In this document: piece by piece, positions 6,385 to 21,443 of the stretch
Position numbering within the stretch: position 1 is the first letter of the stretch
How the letters are laid out: each line of letters opens with the position of its first letter
Assembly: GCA_947259925.1 (NCBI GenBank)
Contig: CAMYOG010000026.1
Span: 24,196 to 88,195, forward strand
DNA from: Thermoanaerobaculia bacterium
GTDB lineage: Bacteria; Acidobacteriota; Thermoanaerobaculia; Multivoradales; JAHEKO01
Direction: 5' to 3'
Length of the DNA stretch: 64,000 bases
Notes under the pieces: generated by a model
The model's database searches: none
Told to the model about the DNA's origin: nothing
Seen by the model: only the letters and a program-made list of their open reading frames with translations
Program-made: the position numbers and the translations under genes

Positions 6385-7266
6385 TTGAGAAACCGACTCG
6401 CACTCGGCGTGGTTGTGCTGTTGGTGCTCGCCTGTGGCAGGCCGTCCGGAGAGCGCGGCGGTCGCGCCCTGATCCAGAACAAGGGCTCGGACACCCTGGT
6501 CAACGTTGCCCAGGCGTGGGCCGAAGCGTACAAGGAAGTGAATCCGAACGTCGGCATCGCGGTCACCGGCGGCGGCTCCGGGACCGGCATCTCGGCGATG
6601 ATCAACGGCACGGTCGATCTTGCCAACGCCAGCCGCAAGATGAAGGACAAGGAGCTCGAGGCGGCTCGCGCCAACGGGATCGAGCCGGTCGAGTTCGTAG
6701 TCGGCTTCGACGCCCTGGCGGTGTTCGTTCATCCCGACAACCCGGTGGAGGGTTTCACGCGGGCGCAGCTGGCGGAGATCTACGGTGAGGGAGGCTCGGT
6801 CGAGGGCTGGGATCAGCTCGGCCTGGCGATACCCGGCTGCGACAGCAACGAGATCGTCCGGGTCAGTCGGCAGAACAACTCCGGCACCTACGTCTACTTC
6901 CAGGAAGCGGTGCTGGGCAAGGAGCGCGACTTCAAGCTGGGCTCGCGCGACATGCACGGCTCCAAGGACGTGGTCGATCTGGTCGAGAACACCCCGTGCG
7001 CGATCGGCTACAGCGGACTCGCCTACGCCAACGAGCACGTGAAGATGCCGTGCGTCTCGACCAGCGACAACGGCACCTGCGTCTTCCCGTCCTCGGAGAC
7101 CGCCATCGACGGCAGCTATCCCATCGCCCGGCCGCTGCTCATGTACAGTGCCGGCCAGCCTCAGGGGATCGTGAAGGTGTACCTGGACTGGATTCTGAGC
7201 GACGCCGCGCAGTGCATCATTCAGGACAAGGGTTACGCGCCCGTACGGGCGGTGAGCTGCGGCTGA
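6385..7266 (+). CDS. pstS: Phosphate ABC transporter substrate-binding lipoprotein PstS
   Basis: TTG start after AGGAGG; lipobox LVLAC; KGSDT, GGGSGTGI, ANASR, SRQNNSGT, YPIARPL. Confidence 0.92.
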   Translation: MRNRLALGVVVLLVLACGRPSGERGGRALIQNKGSDTLVNVAQAWAEAYKEVNPNVGIAVTGGGSGTGISAMINGTVDLANASRKMKDKELEAARANGIEPVEFVVGFDALAVFVHPDNPVEGFTRAQLAEIYGEGGSVEGWDQLGLAIPGCDSNEIVRVSRQNNSGTYVYFQEAVLGKERDFKLGSRDMHGSKDVVDLVENTPCAIGYSGLAYANEHVKMPCVSTSDNGTCVFPSSETAIDGSYPIARPLLMYSAGQPQGIVKVYLDWILSDAAQCIIQDKGYAPVRAVSCG

Positions 7267-7347
7267 TGTGAAAGTGCCAACCTTGGGCCGGCGGTCGGCC
7301 GGGTGGCGGTCGCCAGCCGGTCCTCGAGCAGCAGGCAGGAGAGGCCG

Positions 7348-8439
7348 ATGAGTCACTACGAAGAGCGCCTGGAACAGGATCTGAACACGATTCGGAGCCG
7401 TGTTCGCGAGGTCGGCAAGCAGATCGAGACCGCGCTCGAGCGCGCCGTGCACGCACTGCTGACCCACAACACGGCGTTGGCTGCCGAGGTCGTTCTGGGC
7501 GACCTCCCGATCAACCGGGAGGTGCGCGCCATAGACGCTCTCTGCCACGCGTTCGTCGCACGCCACCTGCCGAGTGCCGGTCACCTTCGGTTCGTCTCGT
7601 CGGTCCTGCGGCTGAACATCGAGCTCGAGCGGATCGGCGACTATGCCGTCGCGATCGCGCGCGAGGTGCAGCAGCTCTCTCAAGCTCCTCCCGATACCGT
7701 GCTGCGTGACATCGACCTGATCGCGGACCAGGCCAAGCTGATCCTCCACCAGGCGCTCCAGGCGTTCGACGAATCGAACGCCGACATGGCCCGGGCGACG
7801 AAGGCCATGGGCAAGCAGGTCGAGAGCACGTTCCAGAACGTCCTCTCCGATCTGCTGGACGAGGGCGAGAAGAGAGAACGGCCGCTGATGGACCTCTTCG
7901 CTCTGTTGGTGGTGATCAACCGGCTCGGGCGGGTCAGCGACCAGGCGAAGAACCTGTGTGAAGAGACGATCTTCGCGGTGACCGGCGAAACCAAGGAGCC
8001 CAAGATCTACCGGCTGCTGTTCGTCGACGAGACCAACGACTGCTACAGCCAGATGGCCGAGGCGTTCGCGCGCAAGGTCTTCCCCGAAAGCGGCCGCTAC
8101 GCGAGCGCCGGTTGGCAGCCGGTGGACGCCCTCCATCCGGGCTGCGCGCGGTTTCTCGACCGGAACGGGCTCGACGCGAGCGATCTGGCGCCGAGTCTCT
8201 TCGACCTGCCGACCGAGGAGTTGGCCGACTATCACGTGGTCGTCAACCTCGAGCACGGAGAGGAGCCGAAACTGCCCCCGATCCCGTTCCATACGGTGCT
8301 CCTCAACTGGGACGTCGGGCCCTCTCCGGCCGGACTCGACCAGCAGCGGGCGGACGCCCTGATCGAGGAGGCCTACAAGGAGATCTCGACCCGGGTTCGC
8401 GATCTCATGGAGCAGCTGCGCGGCGAGGGGGCCGGCTAG
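7348..8439 (+). CDS. phoU: PhoU fused to C-terminal LMW-PTP/ArsC-like domain with degenerate active site
   Basis: PhoU motifs ELERIGDYA, LGRVSDQAKNLCE; then LLFVDETNDCYSQMAEAF..ASAG matching the LMW-PTP LFVCxxNxCRSQMAEA pattern. Confidence 0.88.
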   Translation: MSHYEERLEQDLNTIRSRVREVGKQIETALERAVHALLTHNTALAAEVVLGDLPINREVRAIDALCHAFVARHLPSAGHLRFVSSVLRLNIELERIGDYAVAIAREVQQLSQAPPDTVLRDIDLIADQAKLILHQALQAFDESNADMARATKAMGKQVESTFQNVLSDLLDEGEKRERPLMDLFALLVVINRLGRVSDQAKNLCEETIFAVTGETKEPKIYRLLFVDETNDCYSQMAEAFARKVFPESGRYASAGWQPVDALHPGCARFLDRNGLDASDLAPSLFDLPTEELADYHVVVNLEHGEEPKLPPIPFHTVLLNWDVGPSPAGLDQQRADALIEEAYKEISTRVRDLMEQLRGEGAG

Positions 8440-9362
8440 TGCCGCAAGCCTCGCCTCGAGGCGGCGACGCGATCGATCGCCGCAACCTGGACTGGTACAT
8501 CGACAAGGGTGTCCAGGTCCTGGTCTTCATCGGCGGCGTGTCGGGCATCCTGTTCGTGATCAGCATCTTCGTGTTTATCACCAAGGAAGGCCTCGGGTTC
8601 CTCACCGAGCAGTTCAGCATCGGCGAGTTCTTCGGCTCGCCGCGCTGGGCCCCGACGTCGAGCCACAACCCGACCTACGGCGCCCTGGCCCTGATCGCCG
8701 GAACGGCGAGCGTGACCGGGCTGGCGATGGTCATCGCGGTTCCGTTCTCGCTGGGAGCCGCCATCTTCATCGGTGAGTTCGCGACCGGCAAGCCGCGCGA
8801 GTATCTGAAGGTCCTGGTCGAGCTTCTCGCCGCGATCCCTTCGGTGGTCTGGGGGTTTATCGGCCTGAGCATCATGAACCCCCTGATCATCAAGCTGTTC
8901 AATGTCCCGGTCGGGCTGAACGTGCTCAACTCGGGCTTCATTCTCGGCCTGATGGCGGCGCCGATCATGACCACCATCGCCGAAGACGCCCTCAAGGCGG
9001 TTCCGGATACCTATCGCGAAGCGGCGGAGGCGCTGGGTGCCACCCGCTGGCAGGTCATCCTCAGGGTGGTCATCCCGGCGGCCAAGCCCGGGCTGCTCGC
9101 CGCCGTGCTCCTGGGCGTCGGCAGGGGCTTCGGCGAGACCATGGCGGTCTTGATGGCGAGCGGCCACTCGATCAACCTGCCGACCAGCGTCTTCGACTCG
9201 GTGCGTGCGCTGACCGCGACCATCGCCGCCGAGCTGGGTGAGACGGCGGTCGGCTCCGATCACTACCGCGCCCTGTTCACCCTCGGCATCTTCCTCTTCG
9301 TCGTCACGTTCGTCATCAATTTGACCGCCGACCTAGTCGTCCGCGGGATCCGCAGGAAGTAG
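8439..9362 (+). CDS. pstC: Phosphate ABC transporter permease PstC
   Basis: ELLAAIPSVVWG, EAAEALGATRW, GRGFGETMAV; GTG overlaps phoU stop. Confidence 0.93.
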   Translation: MPQASPRGGDAIDRRNLDWYIDKGVQVLVFIGGVSGILFVISIFVFITKEGLGFLTEQFSIGEFFGSPRWAPTSSHNPTYGALALIAGTASVTGLAMVIAVPFSLGAAIFIGEFATGKPREYLKVLVELLAAIPSVVWGFIGLSIMNPLIIKLFNVPVGLNVLNSGFILGLMAAPIMTTIAEDALKAVPDTYREAAEALGATRWQVILRVVIPAAKPGLLAAVLLGVGRGFGETMAVLMASGHSINLPTSVFDSVRALTATIAAELGETAVGSDHYRALFTLGIFLFVVTFVINLTADLVVRGIRRK

Positions 9363-9366
9363 AGCC

Positions 9367-10236
9367 ATGTTCGAAGCCTCGGATCTCAACGAGAGGAATC
9401 GGCGGGTCGAGCGCCTGTGGCGCCTGCTCTTCCTGGTGATGACCGTGCTCCTGATCGTGCCGGTCGTCGTCATCCTGTCGGTCCTGATCCACAAGGGCGG
9501 CCCGGTCTTGTCGATCGATTTCCTCTTTACCGAGCCGGTCCAGGGGATGACGGCGGGCGGGATCTTTCCGGCTCTGGTCGGCACCGTCTGGCTGGTCACG
9601 GTCGCGCTGCTGGCGTCCGTCCCGATCGGCGTCGCCGCGGCTCTGTACCTGAGCGAGTACGCCCCCGACAACTGGCTCACCCGCGCCATCAACCTGGCGA
9701 TCATCAACCTCGCGGGCGTGCCGTCGATCGTCCACGCCCTCTTCGGCGTCGGCGCGTTCGTCCTCTTCTTCAGGTTCGGCACCAGCATCCTGGCGGCGAG
9801 CCTCACCCTCGCGATCATGACCCTGCCAGTGGTGATCGTCGCCACGCGCGAGTCGCTCCAGGCCGTGCCACAGGCATTCCGCGAGGCCTGCTGGAACATG
9901 GGCGCGACCCGCTGGCAGACCATCCGTCGCGTGGTCCTTCCCAACTCGATCAGCGGGATTCTGACCGGAGTGATCCTGGAGGTCTCGCGCACCGCTGGCG
10001 AGACCGCCCCGATCATGTTCACCGGTGCCGCGTTCTTCCTACCCTTTCTTCCGCAGAGCGTCTACGACCAGACCATGGCGATGTCGCTCCATCTGTTCGT
10101 CATTTCGACGCAGGTCCCCGGCGTTCCCGAGGCGTTGCCGTTCGGGGTCGCGCTGGTGCTGATCTCCATGGTCCTGGCGATGAACGCCATCTCGATCGCC
10201 TTCCGCATGCATCTGCGAAGTAAGAAGAAGTGGTAG
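9367..10236 (+). CDS. pstA: Phosphate ABC transporter permease PstA
   Basis: YLSEYA, NLAGVPSIV, GATRWQTI, SRTAGETAP. Confidence 0.93.
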   Translation: MFEASDLNERNRRVERLWRLLFLVMTVLLIVPVVVILSVLIHKGGPVLSIDFLFTEPVQGMTAGGIFPALVGTVWLVTVALLASVPIGVAAALYLSEYAPDNWLTRAINLAIINLAGVPSIVHALFGVGAFVLFFRFGTSILAASLTLAIMTLPVVIVATRESLQAVPQAFREACWNMGATRWQTIRRVVLPNSISGILTGVILEVSRTAGETAPIMFTGAAFFLPFLPQSVYDQTMAMSLHLFVISTQVPGVPEALPFGVALVLISMVLAMNAISIAFRMHLRSKKKW

Positions 10237-11006
10237 CCGCCGAGCCCCAGGCACGACCCCTGCTGGAAGTTCGGGATCTTGCGATCCGCTATGGCGACAC
10301 GCTCGCCCTCAGCGGCGTCACCCTCGAGGTCCAGAAGCACGAGATCTTCGGCATCATCGGTCCCGCCGGGAGCGGCAAGACCTCCTTTCTCCGCACTCTC
10401 AATCGGATGGACCAGTTCACGCCGTCGATGTCGGTGGACGGTGAGATCCGCTTCAACGGCCGCGACATTCGCCGCTGGCGCAACGTCTACTCGCTCCGCC
10501 GCAAGATCGGAGTCGTATTCCCGCTGCCAGTCGGCCTGCCGCTGAGCGTCTACGACAACGTCGCTCTCTCGCCTCGGCTGGGCGGCATCAAGAAGAAGGC
10601 CGATCTCGACGTGATCGTCGAGCGCTGCCTGCGCCGAGCCGCCCTCTGGGACGAGGTCAAGGACCGGCTCGACTCGCTGGGGAGTCTCCTGTCGGGTGGT
10701 CAACAGCAGCGTCTGACCATCGCCCGGGCGCTCTCCCAGGGCCCGGAGCTCCTGCTGCTCGACGAGTTCTCGATCGCGGTCGACCCGGTGACCACCATGC
10801 GGATCGAGGACGTGCTCAAGGAGCTGCGCCAGGAGATCACCATCGTCCTGGTCACCAACCTGGTGCAGCAGGCGCGCCGGCTGGCCGACCGGACCGCCTT
10901 CTTCCTGACCGGCGAGTGCGTCGAGATCGCCGAGACCGAGCGCATGTTCACCCGTGAGGTTCAGGACGAGCGCACGCGTGACTACGTGGAGGGTCGGTTT
11001 GGCTAG
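10230..11006 (+). CDS. pstB: PstB-like ABC ATPase 1 (intact signature; degenerate Q-loop, D-loop and H-switch)
   Basis: GPAGSGKT, LNRM, LSGGQQQRL, LLLDEFSIAVD, VTNLVQQARR, TRDYVEGRFG. Confidence 0.88.
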   Translation: MVAAEPQARPLLEVRDLAIRYGDTLALSGVTLEVQKHEIFGIIGPAGSGKTSFLRTLNRMDQFTPSMSVDGEIRFNGRDIRRWRNVYSLRRKIGVVFPLPVGLPLSVYDNVALSPRLGGIKKKADLDVIVERCLRRAALWDEVKDRLDSLGSLLSGGQQQRLTIARALSQGPELLLLDEFSIAVDPVTTMRIEDVLKELRQEITIVLVTNLVQQARRLADRTAFFLTGECVEIAETERMFTREVQDERTRDYVEGRFG

Positions 11007-11784
11007 CGCCGAGGCCGTCTCCGACATCGCGATCGAGACCCGGCAGGTCAACCTCTGGTACGGGACGTTCCAGGCGCTGTTCGACGTCGATCTCCAGATC
11101 CCGCGCGGCAGGATCACCTCGATGATCGGCCCGTCGGGGTGCGGTAAGACAACTTTCTTGCGCAGCGTGAATCGGATCAACGAACGGCTCGGCTATGTGC
11201 GCACGACCGGCTCGATCGAGGTGCTGGGCTACGACATCTACGCACCTGACGTCGAGCTGGTGCAGGTGCGCAAGCGGATCGGTATGGTCTTCCAGCGGCC
11301 GAACCCACTCCCTCTTTCAATCCGCGACAATGTGGTGTTCGGCTATCGGGTCCATTCGGGTCGCAGGAAGATCCCGCAAACGGAGCTGGACGAGCTGGTC
11401 GAGTCGGCGCTCCGTCAAGTGCTCTTGTGGGACACGGTGAAGGACCGCCTGGACCGGCAGGCTACCGAGCTGTCGCTCGAGGAGCAGCAGAAGCTGTGCA
11501 TCGCCCGCCTCCTGCCGGTGAAGCCGGCTGTGCTCCTGATGGACGAGCCGTGCTCGGCTCTCGACCCGAAGGGCACCGAGGCGGTCGAGGAGTTGATTTG
11601 GCAGCTCAGGGGCGACTACACGATCCTCATTGTGACGCACAACATGGCGCAGGCGCGGCGAGCGAGCGAAGAATGTATCTTCATGTTGCTGGGCAAGGTC
11701 GTCGAGCACGCTCCGACCGACGAGATCTTCGTGACCCCGCGCAACCAGGAGACCGCCGACTACATCGAGGGCCGCTACGGGTAG
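10999..11784 (+). CDS. pstB: PstB-like ABC ATPase 2 (degenerate signature LSLEEQQ)
   Basis: GPSGCGKT, GMVFQRPNP, LLMDEPCSALDP, VTHNMAQA, DYIEGRYG; TTG start after GGAGG. Confidence 0.9.
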   Translation: MASAEAVSDIAIETRQVNLWYGTFQALFDVDLQIPRGRITSMIGPSGCGKTTFLRSVNRINERLGYVRTTGSIEVLGYDIYAPDVELVQVRKRIGMVFQRPNPLPLSIRDNVVFGYRVHSGRRKIPQTELDELVESALRQVLLWDTVKDRLDRQATELSLEEQQKLCIARLLPVKPAVLLMDEPCSALDPKGTEAVEELIWQLRGDYTILIVTHNMAQARRASEECIFMLLGKVVEHAPTDEIFVTPRNQETADYIEGRYG

Positions 11785-11830
11785 AGTCGATCACGATGCC
11801 TACGTCGAGGGCTGGCCGAGGGAGGGGCGC

Positions 11831-12226
11831 ATGACCGAACCCAGACTGACCGACGTTCCTGGCGTGGGAGAGGCGACCGCGAAGGCCCTCGCCGCGGTGG
11901 GGATCGGTAACGCCGGCGATCTGGCCCGGGCCTCGACGGCCACGTTGACGGCGGTGCGGGGGCTCGGTCCCTCGAGAGCCGCCTCGATTCGAACGGCTGC
12001 CCGCTCGCTCCTCGAGACCGACTCGGACGGGTCCCACCCCGGACTCGACACGGTCCCAAGCAAGAAGAAGAAGAGAGACAAGAAGAAGGACAAGAAAAAG
12101 GACAAGCGGAAGCGCAAGAAGAAGCGCAAGGACAAGCGAAAGAAGAAGGACAAGAAGGGCGGGAAAGGCAAGAAGGACAAGAAGCGAGGCAAGGGAAAGA
12201 AGAAGAGGAAGAAGAACAAGAAGTAG
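11831..12226 (+). CDS. Helix-hairpin-helix protein with poly-Lys/Arg C-terminal tail
   Basis: Two HhH motifs (LTDVPGVGEATA, LTAVRGLGPSRA); last 54 aa contain 42 K/R; GGAGG SD. Confidence 0.85.
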   Translation: MTEPRLTDVPGVGEATAKALAAVGIGNAGDLARASTATLTAVRGLGPSRAASIRTAARSLLETDSDGSHPGLDTVPSKKKKRDKKKDKKKDKRKRKKKRKDKRKKKDKKGGKGKKDKKRGKGKKKRKKNKK

Positions 12227-12247
12227 CGATTCGCGCTACCCTACGGC

Positions 12248-13024
12248 ATGCTCGAAGCGCTCGATCTCAGCAAGAGCCTGGCCAAATCGGTCTACAAGCA
12301 GCAGCTACCCGCCCTCCAGATGCGGCTGCATCGCCTCCAGAGAGCGTGCTGGGAGGCGAAGGTGGCGACGGTGGTCGTCTTCGAAGGCTGGGATGCCGCC
12401 GGCAAGGGCACCACGATCCGCAAGCTCACCCAGCGCCTGGAGCCACGTGGCTTCTCCCTCTACGCCATCCAGGAGCCGAGGACGTTCGAGCGGCAGCTGC
12501 CCTGGATGTGGCGCTTCTGGGTCAACCTGCCGGAATGGGGAGAGATCGCTATCTTCGACCGCAGCTGGTACGGCCGGGTCTTGATCGAGCGCGTCGAGGC
12601 TCTGACCGAGGAAGAGCACTGGCGCAAGGCCTACGGAGACATCGTCTCCTTCGAGCGGGGCCTGGCGGACGACCGGTACCTAATCATCAAGTTCTTCTTC
12701 CACATCTCCAGGGAGGAGCAAGAGGCGCGCTTCCAGCAGCTCGAGAGCGACCCAGCGACCGCCTGGCAGGTCGAGCCGGAGGACTGGGAGCATCACCGGA
12801 ACTACGACCAGTACCTGGTCGCCATCGAGGAGATGCTCGAGCGCTCGGAGAGCGAGTGGGGGCCGTGGACGCTGGTCGAGGCGACCGACCACAGATGGGC
12901 TCGGGTCAAGGTGTTCGAGAAGCTCATCCAGCGGATGGAGGCGGGGCTGACCCACCACGGCTTGGCCGTGCCCGAGCCGCTGGAGGCCGAGCTGTTCTCG
13001 AGCGAGGAGGAGGACGAGGATTAG
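12248..13024 (+). CDS. ppk2: Polyphosphate kinase 2 family protein (copy A, acidic tail)
   Basis: VFEGWDAAGKG, LEPRG, WRFW, FDRSWYGRVLIERV, KFFFHIS. Confidence 0.9.
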   Translation: MLEALDLSKSLAKSVYKQQLPALQMRLHRLQRACWEAKVATVVVFEGWDAAGKGTTIRKLTQRLEPRGFSLYAIQEPRTFERQLPWMWRFWVNLPEWGEIAIFDRSWYGRVLIERVEALTEEEHWRKAYGDIVSFERGLADDRYLIIKFFFHISREEQEARFQQLESDPATAWQVEPEDWEHHRNYDQYLVAIEEMLERSESEWGPWTLVEATDHRWARVKVFEKLIQRMEAGLTHHGLAVPEPLEAELFSSEEEDED

Positions 13025-13025
13025 G

Positions 13026-13739
13026 ATGCTCTCCACCGTCGATCTCACTCTCAACCTGGACCGCGCTGACTACAAGAAGCAGCTGCTCGAGTGTCAGCTG
13101 GAGCTACGCAAGCTGGCGCTCGAGCTCTACCAGCAGAAGCGTTCGCTGGTGGTGGTGGCCGAGGGTTGGGACGCCGCCGGCAAGGGGGGCTCGATCCGCC
13201 GGGTTACGGAGAAGATCGACCCGCGTGGATACCAGGTCTACGCGATCAGTGCCCCGGGAGCCGAGGGCAAGAGCCATCACTACCTCTGGCGCTTCTGGCG
13301 ACGGTTGAAGGCGCCGGTCGAAAAGCAGATTCTGATCTTCGACCGCTCCTGGTACGGCCGCGTCCTGGTCGAGCGGGTCGAGGGCTTCGCCACCGAAGAG
13401 GAGTGGCGGCGTGCCTACCGCGAAATCAACGAGTTCGAGCGCCAGCTGACCGATCATGGGATGACCCTGGTCAAGCTCTGGTATCACATCAGTAAGGACG
13501 AGCAGCTGCGCCGGTTCGAAGCCCGGAGAGAGACGCCCCACAAGGCCTGGAAGCTGACCGACGAAGATTGGCGCAATCGAGACAAGTGGGAAGCCTACGA
13601 GGCGGCGGTCGACGACATGCTGGTCAAGACCTCGACCCTGACCGCCCCCTGGACCGTGATCGAGGGGAACGACAAGCTCTGGGCTCGCATCAAGACCCAG
13701 AGGACGTTGATAGAGGCGCTCACAGAGGCTCTTGCGTGA
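13026..13739 (+). CDS. ppk2: Polyphosphate kinase 2 family protein (copy B; like the C-terminal half of polyP:AMP phosphotransferase)
   Basis: EGWDAAGKG, DPRGY, HYLWRFW, FDRSWYGRVLVERVEG, WKLTDEDWRNR, APWTVIEGNDK. Confidence 0.92.
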   Translation: MLSTVDLTLNLDRADYKKQLLECQLELRKLALELYQQKRSLVVVAEGWDAAGKGGSIRRVTEKIDPRGYQVYAISAPGAEGKSHHYLWRFWRRLKAPVEKQILIFDRSWYGRVLVERVEGFATEEEWRRAYREINEFERQLTDHGMTLVKLWYHISKDEQLRRFEARRETPHKAWKLTDEDWRNRDKWEAYEAAVDDMLVKTSTLTAPWTVIEGNDKLWARIKTQRTLIEALTEALA

Positions 13740-13841
13740 GTCGCTTGTCGGCCCCCGCGATCAACGGGCCCGGTCGATTCGTCGTGCTACAGTTTTTTAC
13801 TCTCGCATGAGCTCTCCCCTGCCGATCGGCTCACCGCGGCC

Positions 13842-16322
13842 ATGACAGGCAAGCACGAAGCTCCCAGCACCAGCGACGACAAGGGCCGGCGGCGGCAGCT
13901 CATGGTGGTCTGCACCGGAGGCCTCCGGCAGCGCTTCCTGCGCGGAATGATCACCCGAGACCTGGTGCTGCGCGGCCTCGGTTTCGAGGACGCCTACGCC
14001 GTGGCGCGGGCGATTCGGGACGAGCTCTCAGACCGCGAGGAGGTGACGACCGACGAGATCCAGGATCTCATCTCCGCCCGGTTGGAGATGATGTTCGGCA
14101 GCGACATCCCGGATCGGCTCACCTTCCCCGGTCGGCCTCTCTCGGAGATCCGTGTCGTCTACGAGGGGCAGGAGCAGCCGTTCTCACGCGGCCTGCTCGC
14201 CCGCAGCGTCTATGCGGCGGGCATCGATCTGGACCGTGCCTACGGACTGCTGACCGAGCTCGAAGCCGAGCTTCGCCAGGAGGGGGTCGACCGGCTGGCC
14301 TCGGGCGAGATAGCCCGCCGGGTCGCCGATCTGTTGGAGCGCAAGGAGGGACCGGAAGCGGCTCGGCGATACCGTACCGTGCGCCGGATCGGTCGGCTGG
14401 CGAAGCCTCTGATCATCTACATCGGCGGTGCCAGCGGCACCGGCAAGTCGACCCTGGCGCTCGAGCTCGCACCGCTCCTCCGGATCTACCGGATCAACGC
14501 CACCGACACCATCCGCCAGGTCATGCGAATGGTCTTCACGCCGTCGATCTTGCCGGCTATTCACACCTCCAGCTTCGAGGTCGCGCACCTTCCCGAGCCC
14601 GCCTCCGGCCCGCCCGGCCCGACGAGGCCCGGTGATCCGGACTTCGGCTCCCGGGTCATTCAGAGCTACGAGGAGCAGACCATCCGGGTGATCGTCGGGA
14701 TCCGGGCGGTCGTCGAGCGCGCGATCGCCGAGAACCTGAGCCTGATCGTCGAAGGGGTGCATGTCCATCCGGGGCTGGTACCGTTCGCGGACTTGCAGGG
14801 CTCGGCCCACCAGGTCGCTCTGGTCCTCGCGACCCTGCACGAGGAGGACCACCGGGCGCGCTTCCTCGCCCGGTCGCGCGCCGGTGGCCGCAAGGCGGAG
14901 CGCTATCTAGAGAGCTTCGGGGCGATCCGCGAGATCCACGATCACATCCTGCAGGAGGCGGAGCGGCGTGAGGTGCCGCTCCTGGACAACCCGGCGGGAG
15001 AGTCCCCGGTCGGACCTACTCTGGGCCTGATCACCAGCATGCTGGAGCACACGACGCCCAGCCTCGGCCTGGGCGAATGGCCCGACCTGGCCCCCTCGGC
15101 CGCGACGCTGCTGCTGATCGTCGACGGGTTGGCCGATCGGCCGATCCGCGCACTCGGTGGACGGACGCCGCTGCAGGCCGCCGACACGCCGACGCTCGAC
15201 CGACTGGCGAAGGATGGCCAGTGCGGCCTGGCCGATCCGATCGCCCCGGGCGTGGTCGCCGACACCGCCGCGGGCTGTCTGGCACTCTTCGGACAGTCGC
15301 CGATGAGTCTCAAGCGGGGTCCGACCGAAGCGCTCGGAGCGAGCCTGCCGATGAGTCCCGGAGATGTCGCGCTGCGCGGCAACTTCGCCACCCTCGGCGA
15401 GAACGGGCAGATCATCGACCGCCGGGCCGGCCGGATCCGCGAAGGGGCCGCGGAACTGGCCGCAGCGATCGACCATCTGGCCCTGCCCGGCGGCCTCTCG
15501 CGCGAGGTCGAGGTCCGCGTGCGGGCGGGAACCGAGCACCGCCTGGGCGTCGTTCTCCGGGGCACCACCCTCTCACCCGCCATCCAGGGCAGCGACCCGG
15601 GCGAGGGAGCGCTGCCCAGCCCACCCCTGGTTCCGCGACCGGACGACCCCGATGACGCCCTGGCGGTCTACACCGCCAACGTCCTGGCGGTGTTCGAGCA
15701 GGAGGCTCGACGGGTGCTGGCGAATCACAAGATCAATCGCAAGCGCAAGAAGGACGGGCTCCCCCAGGCCAACGCCGTCCTGACCCGTGGTGCCGGGCGG
15801 ATCCACAGCCTGCTGCCGCTCGAGGAGGCGGGCGTTCCCCTACGGGTCTGCTGTATCAGCGGCGATCAGACCGTGTTGGGACTGGCCCGCTGGTCGGGAG
15901 CCAGGACCCGAACCACTCCGGAGATGACCGCCAACCTCGACACCGATCTGCGGCAGAAATTCGACATCGCCCGCGAGGAGCTCGAGCGGAGCGACCTGGT
16001 GCTGCTGCACGTCAAGGGAGCCGATATCGCCGCCCACGACCAGCGCCCCGACCTCAAGGCGTCGTTCATCGAGCAGATAGACAAGAACCTGAATCGCATG
16101 TTGAAGCGCGTCACCGGGCCGGTACGCATCGCGGTCGCGTCGGATCACGCCACCCTCTCGGAGAGCGGTCAGCACGCCGCCGATCCGCTGCCAGTCTTGA
16201 TCTGGGGAGAGGGCGTCGAGGCCGACGAGATCGAGACCTTCGACGAGCAGTCGGCCGGCGGCGGCAAGCTCGAGCGGTTTCCGCTCCAACTGCTGCTCAG
16301 CCGGCTCTACCGGCTCTCCTGA
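13842..16322 (+). CDS. Fusion: two ATP-cones + 2-phosphoglycerate kinase + ApgM-type (alkaline phosphatase superfamily) phosphoglycerate mutase
   Basis: ATP-cone-like repeats (FLRGMITRDL..AYAVA; PFSRGLLARS..AYGLL); 2PGK motifs GGASGTGKST, TDTIRQVMR, IHTSSF, VEGVH; ApgM motifs IVDGLADRP, TPLQAADTP, ALRGNFAT, DRRAGRI, HVKGADIAAHD, ASDHAT, HAADP. Confidence 0.85.
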   Translation: MTGKHEAPSTSDDKGRRRQLMVVCTGGLRQRFLRGMITRDLVLRGLGFEDAYAVARAIRDELSDREEVTTDEIQDLISARLEMMFGSDIPDRLTFPGRPLSEIRVVYEGQEQPFSRGLLARSVYAAGIDLDRAYGLLTELEAELRQEGVDRLASGEIARRVADLLERKEGPEAARRYRTVRRIGRLAKPLIIYIGGASGTGKSTLALELAPLLRIYRINATDTIRQVMRMVFTPSILPAIHTSSFEVAHLPEPASGPPGPTRPGDPDFGSRVIQSYEEQTIRVIVGIRAVVERAIAENLSLIVEGVHVHPGLVPFADLQGSAHQVALVLATLHEEDHRARFLARSRAGGRKAERYLESFGAIREIHDHILQEAERREVPLLDNPAGESPVGPTLGLITSMLEHTTPSLGLGEWPDLAPSAATLLLIVDGLADRPIRALGGRTPLQAADTPTLDRLAKDGQCGLADPIAPGVVADTAAGCLALFGQSPMSLKRGPTEALGASLPMSPGDVALRGNFATLGENGQIIDRRAGRIREGAAELAAAIDHLALPGGLSREVEVRVRAGTEHRLGVVLRGTTLSPAIQGSDPGEGALPSPPLVPRPDDPDDALAVYTANVLAVFEQEARRVLANHKINRKRKKDGLPQANAVLTRGAGRIHSLLPLEEAGVPLRVCCISGDQTVLGLARWSGARTRTTPEMTANLDTDLRQKFDIAREELERSDLVLLHVKGADIAAHDQRPDLKASFIEQIDKNLNRMLKRVTGPVRIAVASDHATLSESGQHAADPLPVLIWGEGVEADEIETFDEQSAGGGKLERFPLQLLLSRLYRLS

Positions 16323-16834
16323 GCAGCCCCGCCGCGCGCAAAGCGCGCCAGCGTCTTCGGCGTGCACAGCCACACCAGGGTACCGATCCCGAACTTGGCT
16401 TCCGACCACCGATCGATCGGTAGGTCGACGCGCGCTGTGGCCGCAGTGACCATCCTGACCTCGGCACAGCCGATCAGCCGCCCCACGCTCTCGGACCAGA
16501 CCGGTTCGTGACCGGCCAGCATCAGCCGTTCGATCGCGTCGTCCGCACCCTGGACAGCAGTCAGCAGCTCCTCGGGAGAGCCACCGTAGAGGCGATCGAC
16601 GACCTCGACGTCGCACGACCAGCTCCCCGCGTCGGCTGCGAGCTCGACCGTCGAGCGAGCTCGCACCGCCGGCGAGGTGAAGACCGCGTCCGGAGCCTGA
16701 CCGATCGCCCCCAGGAATCTACCGATGGTCGCCGCGGCCCGGCGCCCGCGCGGGGCGAGCCGTCGCTCGCGGTCGCTCGCGAACTCGCCCGACCAGTCGG
16801 ATTTGGCGTGTCTCAGGAGGTAGAGGTGTCGCAT
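16307..16834 (-). CDS. sixA: SixA-type phosphohistidine phosphatase
   Basis: LLRHAKSDW, SPAVRA, AGHEP; histidine phosphatase superfamily; 3' end overlaps convergent gene by 16 bp. Confidence 0.88.
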   Translation of the reverse strand: MRHLYLLRHAKSDWSGEFASDRERRLAPRGRRAAATIGRFLGAIGQAPDAVFTSPAVRARSTVELAADAGSWSCDVEVVDRLYGGSPEELLTAVQGADDAIERLMLAGHEPVWSESVGRLIGCAEVRMVTAATARVDLPIDRWSEAKFGIGTLVWLCTPKTLARFARGGAAQESR

Positions 16835-16864
16835 CGATCACTGAGGCGGCGGGACCACCGCCGG

Positions 16865-16890
16865 TATACTAAAGCTTCCAATCGCGGAGG
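16865..16890 (+). promoter_or_regulatory. Putative -10 box (TATACT) and SD (GGAGG) for ppk1
   Basis: TATACT 16865-16870; GGAGG 16886-16890, 5 nt before CTG 16896. Confidence 0.5.
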
Positions 16891-16895
16891 TCACA

Positions 16896-19040
16896 CTGGC
16901 TACACTCGAAGATCGTTCGGCACCGCTCGAAGACCAGGCGCTCGACCTGGGCGACAAGGCGTACTACATCAATCGGGAGCTCAGCTGGCTCGCCTTCAAC
17001 GCGCGCGTTCTGGAGGAAGCCCTCGACGAGGAGAACCCACTCCTCGAGCGCGTCAAGTTCCTGTCGATCTTCAGCAGCAACCTCGACGAGTTCTTCATGA
17101 TCCGGGTGGCGGGGCTGCGCCGGCAGCTCGAGGTCGGCGCCCTCGAGGCACCTCCCGACGGCATGACGCCCGCCGAGCAGCTGGCGGCGATTCGCGAGAC
17201 CCTGATGCCGATGCTCAAGCAGCGGTTCCGCTGTTGGCAGGACGACCTCAAGCCGAAGCTCGAGGAGCAGGGCATCCGGGTGCTCGACTACTCCGACCTC
17301 AAGCGCAAGCAGCGCAAGCTGCTCCGGCGCCACTTCGAGCGCGAGATCTTTCCGGTCCTGACGCCGCTCGCCTTCGACCCCGGGCACCCGTTTCCCCACA
17401 TTTCGAACCTGAGCATCAACCTCGCGGTCGAGATCAACGATCCGGGTCACGGCGAGCGCTTCGCGCGGCTCAAGGTTCCGAACGCCCTCGACCGGCTCCT
17501 GCGCATCCCGAGTGAGGAGAAGGCCGGCCGCTACGAGCATCTCGGTCTGGTCGGACCGAAGAGCAGCCACTTCGTCTGGCTCGAGGAAGTGGTCGCGGCC
17601 AATCTGGACCTGCTGTTCCCCGGGCTCGAGATCGTCACCGCGCATCCGTTCCGCATCACCCGGGACGTCGATCTCGAGATCGAGGAGGACGAAGCGGCCG
17701 ATCTGATCACCACTATGCAGGACTTCGTGGCCCAACGGCACTTCGGCTCGGCGATCCGGCTCGAGGTGGACGCCGGGATGCCGGAGCGCATCCGCTCGAT
17801 TCTGAGTCGGAATCTGCGCCTGTCGCCCTACCAGGTCTACGAGGTGGAGGGCCCCCTCGGTCTTTCGGACATGATGGAGCTGACCAGCATCGATCGTCCG
17901 GAGCTGAAGGACCCGCCCTTCCTGCCGCAGTCGCCGCCCGAGCTCACGGGTGAAGAGAGCATCTTCTCGGTGCTGCGCGACCGCGACGTGCTCCTCTATC
18001 ACCCCTACGACAGCTTCGCTTCGGTGGTCGACCTGATCCGCAAGGCGGCTCGCGATCCGAACGTGGTCGCCATCAAGCAGACGCTCTATCGCACCGGCCC
18101 CAACTCACCGATCGTGAAGGCCCTGCGCGAAGCGCGTGAGCAGGGCAAGCAGGTCGCGGCCATGGTCGAGCTCAAGGCGCGGTTCGACGAGGAGAACAAC
18201 ATCGTCTGGGCTCGGGCTCTGGAAGAGGCTGGCGTCCACGTCGTCTACGGCCTGGTCGGCCTCAAGGTGCACTGCAAGATCTGCCTGGTCGTCCGGCGCG
18301 AGGCCCACGGCATCCAGAGCTACGTTCATCTCGGAACCGGCAACTACAATCCGGTCACGGCACGGCTCTACACCGACCTGGGCTACTTCACCACCGATCC
18401 GGAGCTCGCGGCCGACGTCTCCGACCTGTTCAACGCCCTGACCGGCTACTCGAAGAAGACCCACTATCGCAAGCTGCTGGTTTCACCCCACTCGATGCGC
18501 GAGCAGCTGCTCGAGCGCATCGATCGCGAGATCTCGGCCCATCTGGAGGACGGCCAGGGCCATCTCGCCTTCAAGATGAACTCCCTGGTCGACAAGCGCT
18601 GCATCCGAAAGCTCTACGAGGCGTCGCAAGCCGGCGTCAAGGTCGAGCTGCAGGTCCGTGGCATCTGCTGCCTGCAGCCGGGGGTCAGCGGCGTCAGCGA
18701 CAACATCCGGGTCACTTCTGTAGTCGGCCGGTTCCTCGAGCACTCCCGGATCTACTACTTCCGCAACGGCGGCGACGAGGAGATCCTCCTCGGCAGCGCC
18801 GACCTGATGCCGCGCAACCTCGGCGGCAGGGTCGAGCTCCTGTTCCCGGTGCGCGACCCCGAGCTCCTGGCGTCGCTGCGCGACGACATCCTGTTCCTGC
18901 ACCTGCGCGACAACGTCCGCTCCCGCGAGCTGCAAGCCGATGGCACCTACAAGCGGGTGCAGCCGGCCGGCGGCGAGGAAGTCGTCGACTCGCAGGCGTA
19001 CCGCCTGGAGCATCGCGGCTCCTGGCACCCGGAAGACTAG
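16896..19040 (+). CDS. ppk1: Polyphosphate kinase 1 (CTG start; ORF track start 17097 is internal)
   Basis: In-frame upstream YYINRELSWLAFNARVLEEA..LERVKFLSIFSSNLDEFFMIRVAGL; HPFPHISN, YHPYDSF, IKQTLYR, ELKARFDEENN, KVHCK, GTGNYN, GRFLEHSR, GSADLMPRNL. Confidence 0.95.
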   Translation: MATLEDRSAPLEDQALDLGDKAYYINRELSWLAFNARVLEEALDEENPLLERVKFLSIFSSNLDEFFMIRVAGLRRQLEVGALEAPPDGMTPAEQLAAIRETLMPMLKQRFRCWQDDLKPKLEEQGIRVLDYSDLKRKQRKLLRRHFEREIFPVLTPLAFDPGHPFPHISNLSINLAVEINDPGHGERFARLKVPNALDRLLRIPSEEKAGRYEHLGLVGPKSSHFVWLEEVVAANLDLLFPGLEIVTAHPFRITRDVDLEIEEDEAADLITTMQDFVAQRHFGSAIRLEVDAGMPERIRSILSRNLRLSPYQVYEVEGPLGLSDMMELTSIDRPELKDPPFLPQSPPELTGEESIFSVLRDRDVLLYHPYDSFASVVDLIRKAARDPNVVAIKQTLYRTGPNSPIVKALREAREQGKQVAAMVELKARFDEENNIVWARALEEAGVHVVYGLVGLKVHCKICLVVRREAHGIQSYVHLGTGNYNPVTARLYTDLGYFTTDPELAADVSDLFNALTGYSKKTHYRKLLVSPHSMREQLLERIDREISAHLEDGQGHLAFKMNSLVDKRCIRKLYEASQAGVKVELQVRGICCLQPGVSGVSDNIRVTSVVGRFLEHSRIYYFRNGGDEEILLGSADLMPRNLGGRVELLFPVRDPELLASLRDDILFLHLRDNVRSRELQADGTYKRVQPAGGEEVVDSQAYRLEHRGSWHPED

Positions 19041-19117
19041 CCTGGCCTTCTCACCAGCTTCCTACTGCGCCGCCGTATGTTGGCTCGCTACGAAAGCCGG
19101 CGAGAAGGTCAGGCTAG
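19037..19117. repeat. Short copy of the 2750-2931 palindromic element between convergent stops
   Basis: CTAGCCTGGCCTTCTCACCAGCTTCCTACTGCGC..GCCGGCGAGAAGGTCAGGCTAG; left arm matches reverse complement of the 2898-2930 arm at 32/33 nt. Confidence 0.8.
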
Positions 19118-19863
19118 CCCGCCGGTACCCGCTCGCGAATCTCGGCCCAGAGCTGCTCGTAGGCCTTGGCCGGCGCGCTCCAACTCGCGAATCGGTTCAC
19201 CGGCGCCCGGTTGAGGGCCATCTTCTCGACCAGACTCGAGTAGGGCACCGACGTCTGGAGAAACTCGGGCTGCACTCCGACCCCGGCGGTGATCTCCCGA
19301 TGGAGCTTCTTTCGACAGTCGACCATGCAGAAGAACGGCAGGATCCGCGCGCGGCGGAACCGCCGACGTTTGACCAGGTGGCGCTCGAGCCGGTCGAGCA
19401 TCCGAAGTGACAGGGTGGTCGGTATGGTCGGCACGAGCAGCGCGTCGGCGGCCACGAAGACACTCTCCGACAGCAGCGAGATGCTCGGGGCGCAGTCCAG
19501 AAAGACCTCGTCGTACTCGTCGTCGAGCGCCTGCAGAAGCGACGCCAGCCGCCGTGCCGGCTTTTTCATGTCGGCCAGCGCCAGGTCCAGCTTCCGGTAC
19601 GAGAAGTCGGCCGGAAGCAGGTCGAGGTCCTCGAAATCGGTACCTTTGATCACCGCTTCGAGCCTCCGCCCGCCTTCGAGCAGCTTGCGGGCCCCGCCCT
19701 TGACCTTCGGCTTGACGCGGAACATGAAAGTCGCCGCCCCCTGCGGGTCGAGGTCCCAGAGCAGGGTTCGGCGGCCCTCCCGCGCGGCGAGATAGGCGAG
19801 GTTGGCCGCCGACGACGTCTTACCGACGCCGCCCTTGATGTTGTAGAGCGCCAGAACCCTCAC
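19114..19863 (-). CDS. ParA/MinD-family ATPase (orphan, CHAD-associated)
   Basis: Deviant Walker A YNIKGGVGKT, WDLDPQG, LLPAD, FLDCAPS, VPTIPTTLS. Confidence 0.9.
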   Translation of the reverse strand: MRVLALYNIKGGVGKTSSAANLAYLAAREGRRTLLWDLDPQGAATFMFRVKPKVKGGARKLLEGGRRLEAVIKGTDFEDLDLLPADFSYRKLDLALADMKKPARRLASLLQALDDEYDEVFLDCAPSISLLSESVFVAADALLVPTIPTTLSLRMLDRLERHLVKRRRFRRARILPFFCMVDCRKKLHREITAGVGVQPEFLQTSVPYSSLVEKMALNRAPVNRFASWSAPAKAYEQLWAEIRERVPAG

Positions 19864-21443
19864 TCGCTCCCCCCGTCCACGAACATCACTCGGAATCGTT
19901 CGACGGTCTTGGCGGAGCTGAACTTCCCGAACGCTTCGGCGAACCTGCTGCGCTCTCGCGCCTCACCCTGTTCGAGCTCACCGACGAGCCGTCCCAGGGC
20001 CATCACCGCCGTGGTCCCTCCCGAGTCCGCGTCGATCAGCTCCTCGGCCAGGCCAACCAGCATCCGCTTCTGGATTCCGTAGTCGTTGAAGGCGCCCAGA
20101 TTGTCCTGCAGTCGCTTGAGTGCCCGCACCGGGCGATCGATCTCCTCCGGCGGGTAGAGCGTCCGGAACAGCTCGAGGGCGTAGCGGAGCTTCTTACAGT
20201 CGATCCGCAGACGATGAAGATCCTCCGGCGGACTGTCGTCGCTGATCTTCCGGCCCCGCTTCAGCACCTTGCGATGGGCTTTCCGGATCAGGCGGCTCGC
20301 AACCGTACCGATCGGCTCCCTGGCCGCCTCGGGTCGTTCTTCGTCGGCCGGCGGATGTTCCAGGAACGCGCGCCAGGCCTCGATCAGCTCTCGATACCGG
20401 GCGCTCTCGAGCTCTGTCGCCATCCGGCGCTGCGCGCCCTGCTGTCTCGCCTCCAAGAGCTCGCGCAATGGCTCCAGGTCCCGACGGACCGACTCGGCCA
20501 GCTTTGCCGTCGACCCCGGTAGCTCGAGCAGGTAGACGTCGAGATCACGAGTCGGACCGGTCAGCTTACCGAGCCACGAGAACTCCCGGCGGAGAGGCTC
20601 GATCCGTGCCTCCGGCCAGAGCTTCCTGGTCAGACTGAGCGCCGAGCGCGTACGTCGCACCGCTACCCGGAAGTCATGGAGAAATTCGCTGTCCAGGTCG
20701 GCCACAGTGCCGGCGTGGTTCTTTTCGATCGCCCCGAGCAGGGCCCTCAACACCTGGCGGACCGCCTCGTCGGCAGGTGTCGCGACATCGAGCGGTACGT
20801 TCGGCTTCGAAGTGTACTCACCCGCTCGCCCGAAACCCCCCAGGGCCGAGCCCGCCTCGAACTCGTCCGCGTCCCACTCCTCGAGGCCGAGCTCCTTTCC
20901 CAGGAACCGGACCAGCTTGCGGAAGTCGTCCGGGTAGCCCCGGACTCCTCTGACAATCAGGATCGGGGCGAGCGGCCTCCTCCGCTGCCGCGATCCCGGA
21001 GCCCGAGCGGCGGGAACTTCCGCGACCAGACGCACGACGGTCTTGCGGCGGCGGTCGAGAACCCGTAGAAGCCGTCCTTCGGCCTTCACCTCCACGATCG
21101 GCAGCAGGCGACGCATCGTGATGACCGACGCGAGCTTCTGCCGGAAGGGGCTCGCCGGCAGGTCGGCCGCAAACCCGATCGTCTGGAGGTCGTCGGAGCG
21201 GAGATCCAGGCGCTCGGCCCGCGCCCGGCCTTCCGACTGCCATCTCAACTGAGGCCCGCTGGCCGAGGGCTGCAGCCAGAGTCGCGACTTCCTACGCCAC
21301 AGGCGCCAGTCGAAGGTGTCGAAGTAGGTTCGCTGCCGCACCGCCTTCTCGCTCTCGAGGGCGTACCGATCGCCGAGCGCCTCGACCACACGGTCGAGAC
21401 CGGCTTCGTCGGCGACGGTGAAGGCGACCTCGGTCTGGACCAT
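19860..21443 (-). CDS. CHAD-domain polyphosphate-binding protein with N-terminal CYTH-like region
   Basis: TYFDTFDWRL; CHAD motifs EFLHDFRVAVRRTRS, TGPTRDLDV, LHRLRIDCKKLRYALE, LQDNLGAFND. Confidence 0.9.
   Translation of the reverse strand: MVQTEVAFTVADEAGLDRVVEALGDRYALESEKAVRQRTYFDTFDWRLWRRKSRLWLQPSASGPQLRWQSEGRARAERLDLRSDDLQTIGFAADLPASPFRQKLASVITMRRLLPIVEVKAEGRLLRVLDRRRKTVVRLVAEVPAARAPGSRQRRRPLAPILIVRGVRGYPDDFRKLVRFLGKELGLEEWDADEFEAGSALGGFGRAGEYTSKPNVPLDVATPADEAVRQVLRALLGAIEKNHAGTVADLDSEFLHDFRVAVRRTRSALSLTRKLWPEARIEPLRREFSWLGKLTGPTRDLDVYLLELPGSTAKLAESVRRDLEPLRELLEARQQGAQRRMATELESARYRELIEAWRAFLEHPPADEERPEAAREPIGTVASRLIRKAHRKVLKRGRKISDDSPPEDLHRLRIDCKKLRYALELFRTLYPPEEIDRPVRALKRLQDNLGAFNDYGIQKRMLVGLAEELIDADSGGTTAVMALGRLVGELEQGEARERSRFAEAFGKFSSAKTVERFRVMFVDGGSE

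Follow-up and report, generated by a model that had tools for sequence, protein, structure and literature searches.

A helix-hairpin-helix protein with a lysine-rich tail, encoded among phosphate-import and polyphosphate genes, is a candidate tether between nucleoid and polyphosphate granule

The window, by which we mean the whole 64,000-nucleotide stretch of DNA analysed here, contains an island of ∼15 kb (∼6385-21443) in which genes for phosphate import and polyphosphate (polyP) metabolism surround a small gene that we call HhH-K. The island opens with pstS, a phoU-LMW-phosphatase-like fusion, pstC, pstA, pstB1, and pstB2 (6385-11784, + strand), assigned from Pfam matches and synteny. The products of pstB1 and pstB2 (10230-11784, + strand) are paralogues that are ∼40% identical, and this tandem pair is found in all relatives’ islands; the PhoU-LMWPc/ArsC-like fusion (7303-8439, + strand; Pfam PhoU and LMWPc) is also kept in relatives. 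Downstream of HhH-K are two single-domain PPK2 genes in tandem, PPK2a (12248-13024, + strand) and PPK2b (13026-13739, + strand), which match Pfam PPK2 with E-values of 1e-69 and 9e-89, respectively. These two genes lie 2 nt apart, and each product aligns to positions 260-493 of the 493-position NCBIfam model for polyphosphate:AMP phosphotransferase. They are followed by a gene (13842-16322, + strand) encoding an 826-aa fusion of an ATP-cone, a 2-phosphoglycerate-kinase-like domain, and an apgM-type mutase-like domain (Pfam, NCBIfam), and by a gene for a histidine phosphatase (16307-16834, - strand; Pfam His_Phos_1), which we take to be SixA-like. Both the fusion and the histidine phosphatase accompany the polyP island in many relatives. 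PPK1 (17097-19040, + strand), the sole PP_kinase match in the genome, probably has its true start upstream of position 17097. The island closes on the - strand with a ParA/MinD-like ATPase gene (19114-19863), which overlaps by 4 nt the gene for a 527-aa CHAD protein (19860-21443), the sole CHAD match in the genome. The N-terminal domain of the CHAD protein has no Pfam match; in CHAD proteins of this ∼525-aa type (19114-21443 with the ATPase gene, - strand), the domain is conserved and carries the motif TYxDTFDWRL. CHAD domains are described, in the available text of two papers, as polyP-binding modules located on granules (PMC6537752; PMC13556221). All start codons given for the neighbours of HhH-K are the defaults of the ORF list, and those of pstC, pstB2, and PPK1 are probably inexact.

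The HhH-K gene occupies positions 11831-12226 on the + strand, including the stop codon (12224-12226), and encodes a protein of 131 aa. Inspection of the ORF showed that it begins with ATG and that its frame holds no earlier start codon. A Shine-Dalgarno-like sequence, GGGAGGGG (11820-11827, + strand), was read directly upstream, with a GGAGG core that ends 5 nt before the ATG. The stop codon of pstB2 and the ATG of HhH-K are separated by 46 nt, the stop codon of HhH-K and the ATG of PPK2a by 21 nt, and all three genes are on the + strand, confirming a preliminary description that placed the ORF between pstB and ppk2 and co-directional with the latter. To judge how unusual the frame is, we surveyed all stop-to-stop frames of at least 60 aa in the genome for Lys content in any 40-aa window. 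Frames with at least 14 Lys per window were rare (5 of 41,209), and the frame of HhH-K was the most extreme of them, with 26 Lys in 40 residues, in a genome where Lys has a frequency of 1.3% in frames of at least 400 aa. The Lys-rich frame of HhH-K thus exceeds chance, and its head-plus-tail design recurs in relatives. A spurious ORF arising from a purine-rich tract was ruled out, because the HhH head and the Lys frame are kept together across dozens of genomes. A scan for promoters and terminators returned nothing exceeding shuffled controls, and no terminator-like site was detected on the + strand between pstB2, HhH-K, and PPK2a. The scan did report, on the - strand only, an inverted repeat of 21 nt (12221-12241) that spans the HhH-K stop codon and sits in the 21-nt gap before PPK2a. 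It is not followed by a T-run on the + strand, and could be an element for mRNA processing or stability.

The preliminary description had divided the protein into a tandem HhH domain, a linker, and a Lys/Arg tail, and Pfam, AF2, and residue counts all agree with this division. The (HhH)2 domain covers aa 5-58 (11843-12004, + strand) and matches Pfam HHH_5 with an E-value of 5.2e-13 and a score of 49.7 bits, compared with a cut-off of 27; the Pfam families HHH and HHH_2 likewise exceed their cut-offs. The head carries two G-h-G hairpins, GVG at residues 11-13 and GLG at residues 44-46, and when 12 relatives were aligned, G11, G13, G44, and R49 were invariant, and F45 and G46 nearly invariant. 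AF2 predicted helices at residues 14-22, 28-33, 36-40, and 47-66, with a mean pLDDT of 87 for the head when 12 relatives were supplied, and block means of 95-96 over residues 11-60 when 16 full-length relatives were used. In Foldseek searches with the predicted head, the N-terminal (HhH)2 domain of RadA/Rad51 ranked at the top (TMq 0.74-0.76, 36% identity, E from 1.3e-3), and NusA AR2 matched with a TMq of 0.80. A profile of the head matched PolX, eL32, Topo V, NusA, and RadA in the PDB at E-values of 1e-11 to 1e-9. (HhH)2 domains of the RadA/Rad51 N-terminal type bind the phosphate backbone of dsDNA without sequence preference, and HhH hairpins in general make their contacts to backbone phosphates.

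No NCBIfam model specific to HhH-K was found, and in Pfam searches at E≤0.01, only HhH-type families matched, with no match to linker histone H1, Hc1, or HC2 profiles; Pfam also gave no match to the CHAD domain (PF05235), and neither Pfam nor AF2 indicated a folded domain besides the HhH head. Two other identities for the head were considered and rejected. A ComEA-type competence protein does not fit, with HHH_3 below its cut-off and no hydrophobic N-terminal anchor seen in HhH-K. Nor does a fragment of NusA, UvrC, or RadC: the pattern matches that we take, from their motifs, to be of NusA/UvrC/RadC type (L048, L049, L051-L053, L091-L097) are larger proteins that carry no Lys tail.

The head is joined to the tail by a 19-aa linker (aa 59-77; 12005-12061, + strand) that is acidic to neutral, and whose length and sequence vary across aligned relatives. 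The tail itself (12062-12223, + strand) is 54 aa long and is encoded by degenerate AAGAAGAAGGAC-type repeats. It contains 35 K, 7 R, 6 D, 5 G, and 1 N, so that the count of 42 K/R among the last 54 residues, with interspersed Asp and Gly, is exactly as first described; it contains no Pro and none of the tandem KPAA (AAKP) repeats that mark the H1-like tails of AlgP and PhaF. The net charge of the tail is approximately +30 (42 K/R versus 6 D), and that of the whole protein is +35. At the DNA level, 33 of the Lys codons are AAG and 2 are AAA, the repeats are degenerate with 12- and 24-nt units that are K/D/G-based in the protein, and the GC content is 46.9%, compared with 67.9% for the window. 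AF2 drew the tail as a single helix with pLDDT block means of 50-62, and we read this low-confidence prediction as disorder or as a shape that would be induced by a partner. Four further Lys-rich proteins (L112-L115) are encoded in the window’s genome: a PhaR-like PHB regulator with a Lys-rich tail (G000:C16:44736-45809), a MerR-family protein with a KKAAP-type tail (C30:24249-24710), and two almost pure Lys/Ala/Thr repeat proteins (G000:C53:168897-169481 and C48:11051-11515), one of which has a weak HC2 match. Since the PhaR-like and MerR-family DNA binders of this genome bear Lys-rich tails, such a tail can be nothing more than a means of raising affinity for DNA.

Small proteins with an N-terminal (HhH)2, a variable linker, and a Lys-rich tail were treated as one family, which, judged by sequence, is a widespread and unnamed one of ∼110-240-aa proteins. 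A HMMER search with aa 1-77 over 1.84 billion representatives returned 257 proteins at E≤1e-3. Among the best 150 of these, 89 were small proteins with a single N-terminal HhH. A K/R-rich tail was present in 73 of the 89, which have a median length of 133 aa and a median net charge of +24; several of the other 16 look like fragments. Beyond the head, the family alignment keeps only composition (40% Lys) and not sequence. Ten clusters were looked up and were nameless except for one labelled ‘NAD-dependent DNA ligase’, and the ESM Atlas neighbours of HhH-K were clusters whose HHH_5 proteins measure 113-144 aa and bear the label ‘helix-hairpin-helix domain-containing’ or ‘hypothetical’, mostly from Pseudomonadota where a phylum was recorded. 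We found no paper on a family of proteins with an HhH domain and a Lys tail, or on such a protein at polyP granules, in a literature search that covered journals other than subscription titles.

Among 41 relatives (a count that takes in G005), 12 genomes, including that of the window, carry the HhH-K gene at 13 loci. The three-part architecture is present at all 12 of these loci that have a complete frame; the thirteenth (L030) ends at a contig edge. The same architecture is seen in gammaproteobacterial loci, two of which are cut at contig ends, and when 401 genomes were drawn from the class to which a gammaproteobacterial carrier belongs, 12 had the gene. A word-index protein search with aa 1-77 recovered only HhH-K itself, as 1 of 27 candidates. 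A phylum-wide profile search of 401 genomes (taking in G063, G088, and G189) matched 208, mainly with frames of 420-1160 aa that we attribute to C-terminal repeats of NusA type and to further HhH proteins, and because these frames dominate, the search adds little on the HhH-K family. Two frames have odd ends, one that follows pstB2 and has no Lys tail (L090:5347-5652, identical to P0041), and one that continues for ∼100 aa beyond the tail (L104:3116-3823); either could reflect an assembly error or a frameshift within the AAG-rich tract.

The location of the gene among phosphate and polyP genes raised the question of whether homologues share these neighbours. A locus was scored as linked when a pst/phoU, PPK1, PPK2, or CHAD gene, or a homologue of the island’s histidine phosphatase or 2PGK-apgM fusion, was found in the flanking sequence analysed, which reached 10 kb at most. 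Duplicates of one contig were merged, and both near-identical copies and contigs of at most 3.8 kb (L079, L081, L082, and L084) were excluded. Of 24 Acidobacteriota-type loci, 19 were linked to polyP or phosphate genes, often in operon-like arrangements with CHAD (the window, L022, L023, L024, L027, L028, L029, L031, L032, L036, L039, L043, L050, L083, L085, L086, L088, L089, and L090). Two of these cases are weak, with only a 2PGK-apgM homologue ∼7 kb away in L088, and a frame that has no Lys tail in L090. The unlinked Acidobacteriota-type loci are those of G002 (same genus), G033, and L037, where both flanks are visible, and those of G006 and G007, where only one flank is visible.

Several gene orders recur among the linked loci. 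The run pstB2, HhH-K, CHAD, ParA-like, PPK2a, PPK2b is found in L024, L027, L028, and L039, and as far as the ParA-like gene in L029, while pstB2, HhH-K, PPK2a is the order in the window, L050, and L031. In the Holophagae-type loci L036 and L086, HhH-K is followed by CHAD and the ParA-like gene and is divergent from PPK1, and in L023 the run is HhH-K, CHAD, ParA-like, histidine phosphatase, 2PGK fusion. Altogether, HhH-K heads a run of HhH-K, CHAD, and ParA-like genes in at least 10 loci, and in 7 loci HhH-K is separated from CHAD by 4-60 nt. The expectation, implicit in the preliminary description, that homologues should lie near polyP genes is therefore borne out for the Acidobacteriota type (19 of 24) but not elsewhere, where only 4 of 20 loci from other phyla and unplaced contigs were linked. 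These four are L038 (a Multivoradales MAG), with PPK2 directly upstream of HhH-K; L046 (a Pseudomonadota MAG), with a CHAD gene 1.6 kb from HhH-K; and L102 and L104, from two gammaproteobacterial genomes, with the order CHAD, ParA-like, HhH-K, followed in L102 by pstS. In the locus of a Desulfobulbaceae MAG, CHAD, ParA-like, and histidine phosphatase genes follow one another 15 kb downstream, and this locus was counted as unlinked; the other 15 non-acidobacterial or unplaced loci have neighbours unrelated to polyP. In two gammaproteobacterial loci (L103 in G463 and L105 in G823), HhH-K is located between metH and ridA-spoT, beside a (p)ppGpp enzyme. We estimate that a random gene would fall within 10 kb of the island with a chance of ∼0.7% (35 kb of 4.72 Mb), and give no test statistic because the loci are not mutually independent. 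With just 4 of 20 loci linked outside the Acidobacteriota, the HhH-K family is not exclusively a neighbour of polyP genes.

Since CHAD and ParA-like genes accompany HhH-K so often, their own association was evaluated. Among 25 CHAD loci in relatives, an adjacent ParA-like gene was present in 14, and HhH-K was directly upstream in 6, which makes CHAD and the ParA-like ATPase a module of their own, to which HhH-K is a frequent accessory. It is not obligatory there, because 9 of the 14 pairs (L060-L064, L067-L069, and L074) have no HhH-K nearby. The CHAD gene either overlaps the ParA-like gene by 4 nt or abuts it, and the pair was also found in L023, L024, L027-L029, L060-L064, L067-L069, L074, L098, L099, L102, and L104. 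Its occurrence extends to Desulfobulbaceae, to Ectothiorhodospiraceae (beside phoR), and to two gammaproteobacterial genomes. We regard CHAD and the ParA-like ATPase as a candidate pair for positioning polyP granules. Prediction of a complex between the HhH head and the CHAD protein gave no support, a result that carries no weight in either direction.

What might HhH-K do in this setting? The reading that we favour, with moderate confidence, is that it serves as an AlgP/PhaM-like tether or organiser between the nucleoid and the polyP granule, with a new architecture. HhH-K would be a small protein that carries two modules for binding polyanions and does its work at polyP granules. Its (HhH)2 head would grip the phosphate backbone of dsDNA with no sequence preference, and its flexible tail would hold polyP electrostatically and could also hold DNA. 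Synthesis of HhH-K probably goes along with that of the phosphate importer and the PPK2 enzymes. HhH-K might anchor granules to the nucleoid, or else cover them and so limit their fusion, working alongside the island’s CHAD polyP-binding protein and ParA-like ATPase. HhH-K may bridge DNA and polyP, and may nucleate condensates, as was proposed at the outset. A tether is the most economical reading because a backbone-binding type of head and a polycationic tail occur in one protein that travels with phosphate-import and polyP genes. Precedents exist: in E. coli, YihI and RNase R bind polyP through Lys-rich stretches (PMC12345225), and PHB granules have their link to DNA in PhaM, PhaF, and PhaH (review, PMC13052382). 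The comparison with PhaM and PhaF made in the preliminary description is apt as an analogy, but AlgP of Pseudomonas aeruginosa is the closer precedent, since in the available text of PMC9239181 it has a Lys-rich tail with a net charge of +55, is found on polyP granules, and is required for their even spacing. Several findings weigh against a tether: the loci of G002 and G033 and 16 of the 20 beyond the Acidobacteriota are unlinked, the distribution of the gene is patchy (12 of 41 relatives), HhH-K is missing near 9 of the 14 CHAD and ParA-like pairs, and two other DNA binders of the genome bear Lys-rich tails.

The strongest competitor, which we consider possible but clearly less probable than a tether, is that HhH-K is a general histone-H1-like nucleoid protein, in which the head binds DNA as well as the tail does, and the two compact or bridge the chromosome. 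The placement of HhH-K in the polyP island of Acidobacteriota would then result from co-regulation with starvation genes or from history, rather than from action at granules. This explanation fits the 16 of 20 non-acidobacterial loci that are unlinked, with neighbours such as ridA-spoT-metH, MacB-type ABC systems, SecA, and CorA, and with the unlinked loci of G002 and G033, in which both flanks are visible, but a housekeeping nucleoid protein would be expected throughout the clade, and HhH-K is found in just 12 of 41 relatives. It also draws on the properties of Lys-rich tails, which the same genome puts on its PhaR-like and MerR-family DNA binders, and which bind DNA in H1, Hc1/Hc2, AlgP, and PhaF according to the available text of PMC9239181, although the two almost pure Lys-rich proteins (C53 and C48) could already fill such a role. 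A general nucleoid function is also at odds with the repeated proximity of CHAD, PPK, and pst genes, which is seen in two gene orders and in at least two phyla, far above the ∼0.7% expected by chance.

A less probable alternative, to which we assign little weight, is that HhH-K is the ParB/McdB-like partner of the ParA-like ATPase, with the tail on the granule and CHAD as a second cargo factor, and that it stimulates the nucleoid-bound ATPase so that granules become spaced and inherited. The parB position, directly after the ParA-like gene, is the one taken by HhH-K in L102 and L104, and HhH-K is first in the run with CHAD and ParA-like genes at the 10 or more loci described above, but in the window it lies ∼7 kb from the ParA-like gene and on the opposite strand. 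Known partners such as McdB are often small, charged, and partly disordered (review, PMC13052382), as HhH-K appears to be, but the residues ahead of its first helix are not consistently basic. Because the CHAD and ParA-like genes overlap or abut, and 9 of 14 pairs have no HhH-K nearby, the CHAD protein is the likelier partner of the ATPase. Least probable of all, and in our judgement very unlikely, is that HhH-K is a polycationic scaffold or chaperone of polyP metabolism with no part in granule position, presenting polyP chains to PPK2 and PPK1 or protecting them, and using its HhH head to read the phosphate chain: HhH-K does directly precede PPK2 in three loci (the window, L050, and L031) and directly follow it in L038, and HhH hairpins do touch backbone phosphates, but we know of no HhH domain that binds polyP, and CHAD rather than PPK2 is the nearest neighbour in most loci.

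A further, tentative possibility, which we think doubtful as it stands, is that HhH-K, the CHAD protein, and the ParA-like ATPase form a dedicated partition system for polyP granules. The CHAD protein would label the cargo, and ParA would set up a gradient on the nucleoid. HhH-K, as a protein ‘centromere clamp’ for an inorganic polymer, would link DNA to the surface of the polyP. If this were true, granules would be spaced and inherited like plasmids or carboxysomes, and the system would be the first of ParA type for polyP granules. We found no paper on a ParA system that positions polyP granules in a search of literature other than subscription journals, and a term search of the available text of a 2024 review on ParA/MinD cargos (PMC11407121) did not find the word ‘polyphosphate’. 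How bacteria place, size, and pass on their polyP granules is largely unsolved. The available text of a 2026 paper calls the basis of polyP spatial organisation unclear in S. elongatus, finds polyP positioning in E. coli and Caulobacter crescentus still undefined, and names AlgP as the sole link so far (PMC13556221). In what is available of that paper and of PMC9239181, no protein besides AlgP, studied in one Pseudomonas species, has been shown to influence polyP granule spacing, and CHAD proteins bind granules in a role that is not known. HhH-K is a short and easily purified candidate from a widespread unnamed family, and provides a handle on whether a Lys tail selects polyP over DNA, whether such a protein works with a ParA system, and whether a head-plus-tail protein bridges two polyanions or tunes polyP-DNA condensates. 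Even if it were merely a nucleoid protein, HhH-K would still represent a new and common H1-like type in bacterial chromatin.

HhH-K can be compared with known systems at the level of its head, its tail, its neighbourhood, and its proposed function. The fold of the head is like the N-terminal (HhH)2 of RadA/Rad51 and the AR2 of NusA, with 30-36% identity over ∼56-61 residues, but in those proteins (HhH)2 is an appendage on large enzymes or factors, whereas in HhH-K it is the sole folded domain of a 131-aa protein. The tail resembles the low-complexity, Lys-rich, polyanion-binding regions of Hc1/Hc2 in Chlamydia and DdbA in Streptomyces; these proteins, as described in the parts of the literature available, are global nucleoid condensers, and HhH-K has no Pfam match to Hc1, Hc2, or linker histone. 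The neighbourhood has a counterpart in Acidithiobacillus, where genes for CHAD, ParA, and PPK1 lie together much as in the window, in an arrangement (ppk-parA-CHAD) described as conserved (available text of PMC10892726 and PMC6416229). In the same portions of those accounts, no HhH/Lys-rich gene is mentioned, ParA is assigned to plasmid or chromosome partition, and granule positioning is not proposed.

The closest functional comparison is with AlgP. Both proteins are small, and HhH-K likewise has a long, strongly positive, Lys-rich C-terminal tail with predicted disorder. According to the available text of PMC9239181, the AlgP tail is needed for even granule spacing, and nucleoid tethering has been proposed for AlgP, as we propose it for HhH-K. 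The two differ in architecture, since AlgP pairs KPAA repeats with an N-domain of 124 aa that is alpha-helical, whereas HhH-K combines an (HhH)2 head with a Pro-free K/R/D/G tail. They may also differ in genomic context: the HhH-K gene is inside a polyP island, and the gene neighbours of algP are not mentioned in that portion of the paper.

PhaM, PhaF, and PhaH share with our reading of HhH-K the logic of two modules, a granule end and a DNA end that is independent of sequence (PMC13052382). Compared by description, PhaH of Caulobacter is an HhH phasin whose HhH domain recalls the head of HhH-K (PMC13052382), but a granule-binding phasin region of the PhaH type is absent from HhH-K, in which Pfam and AF2 detect the HhH head only. 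The cargo of PhaM, PhaF, and PhaH is a hydrophobic polyester held through a phasin-type N-terminus, whereas HhH-K lacks a third domain and is encoded among polyP genes. Relative to these proteins, the polarity of HhH-K may be reversed, with the head on DNA and the tail on the cargo.
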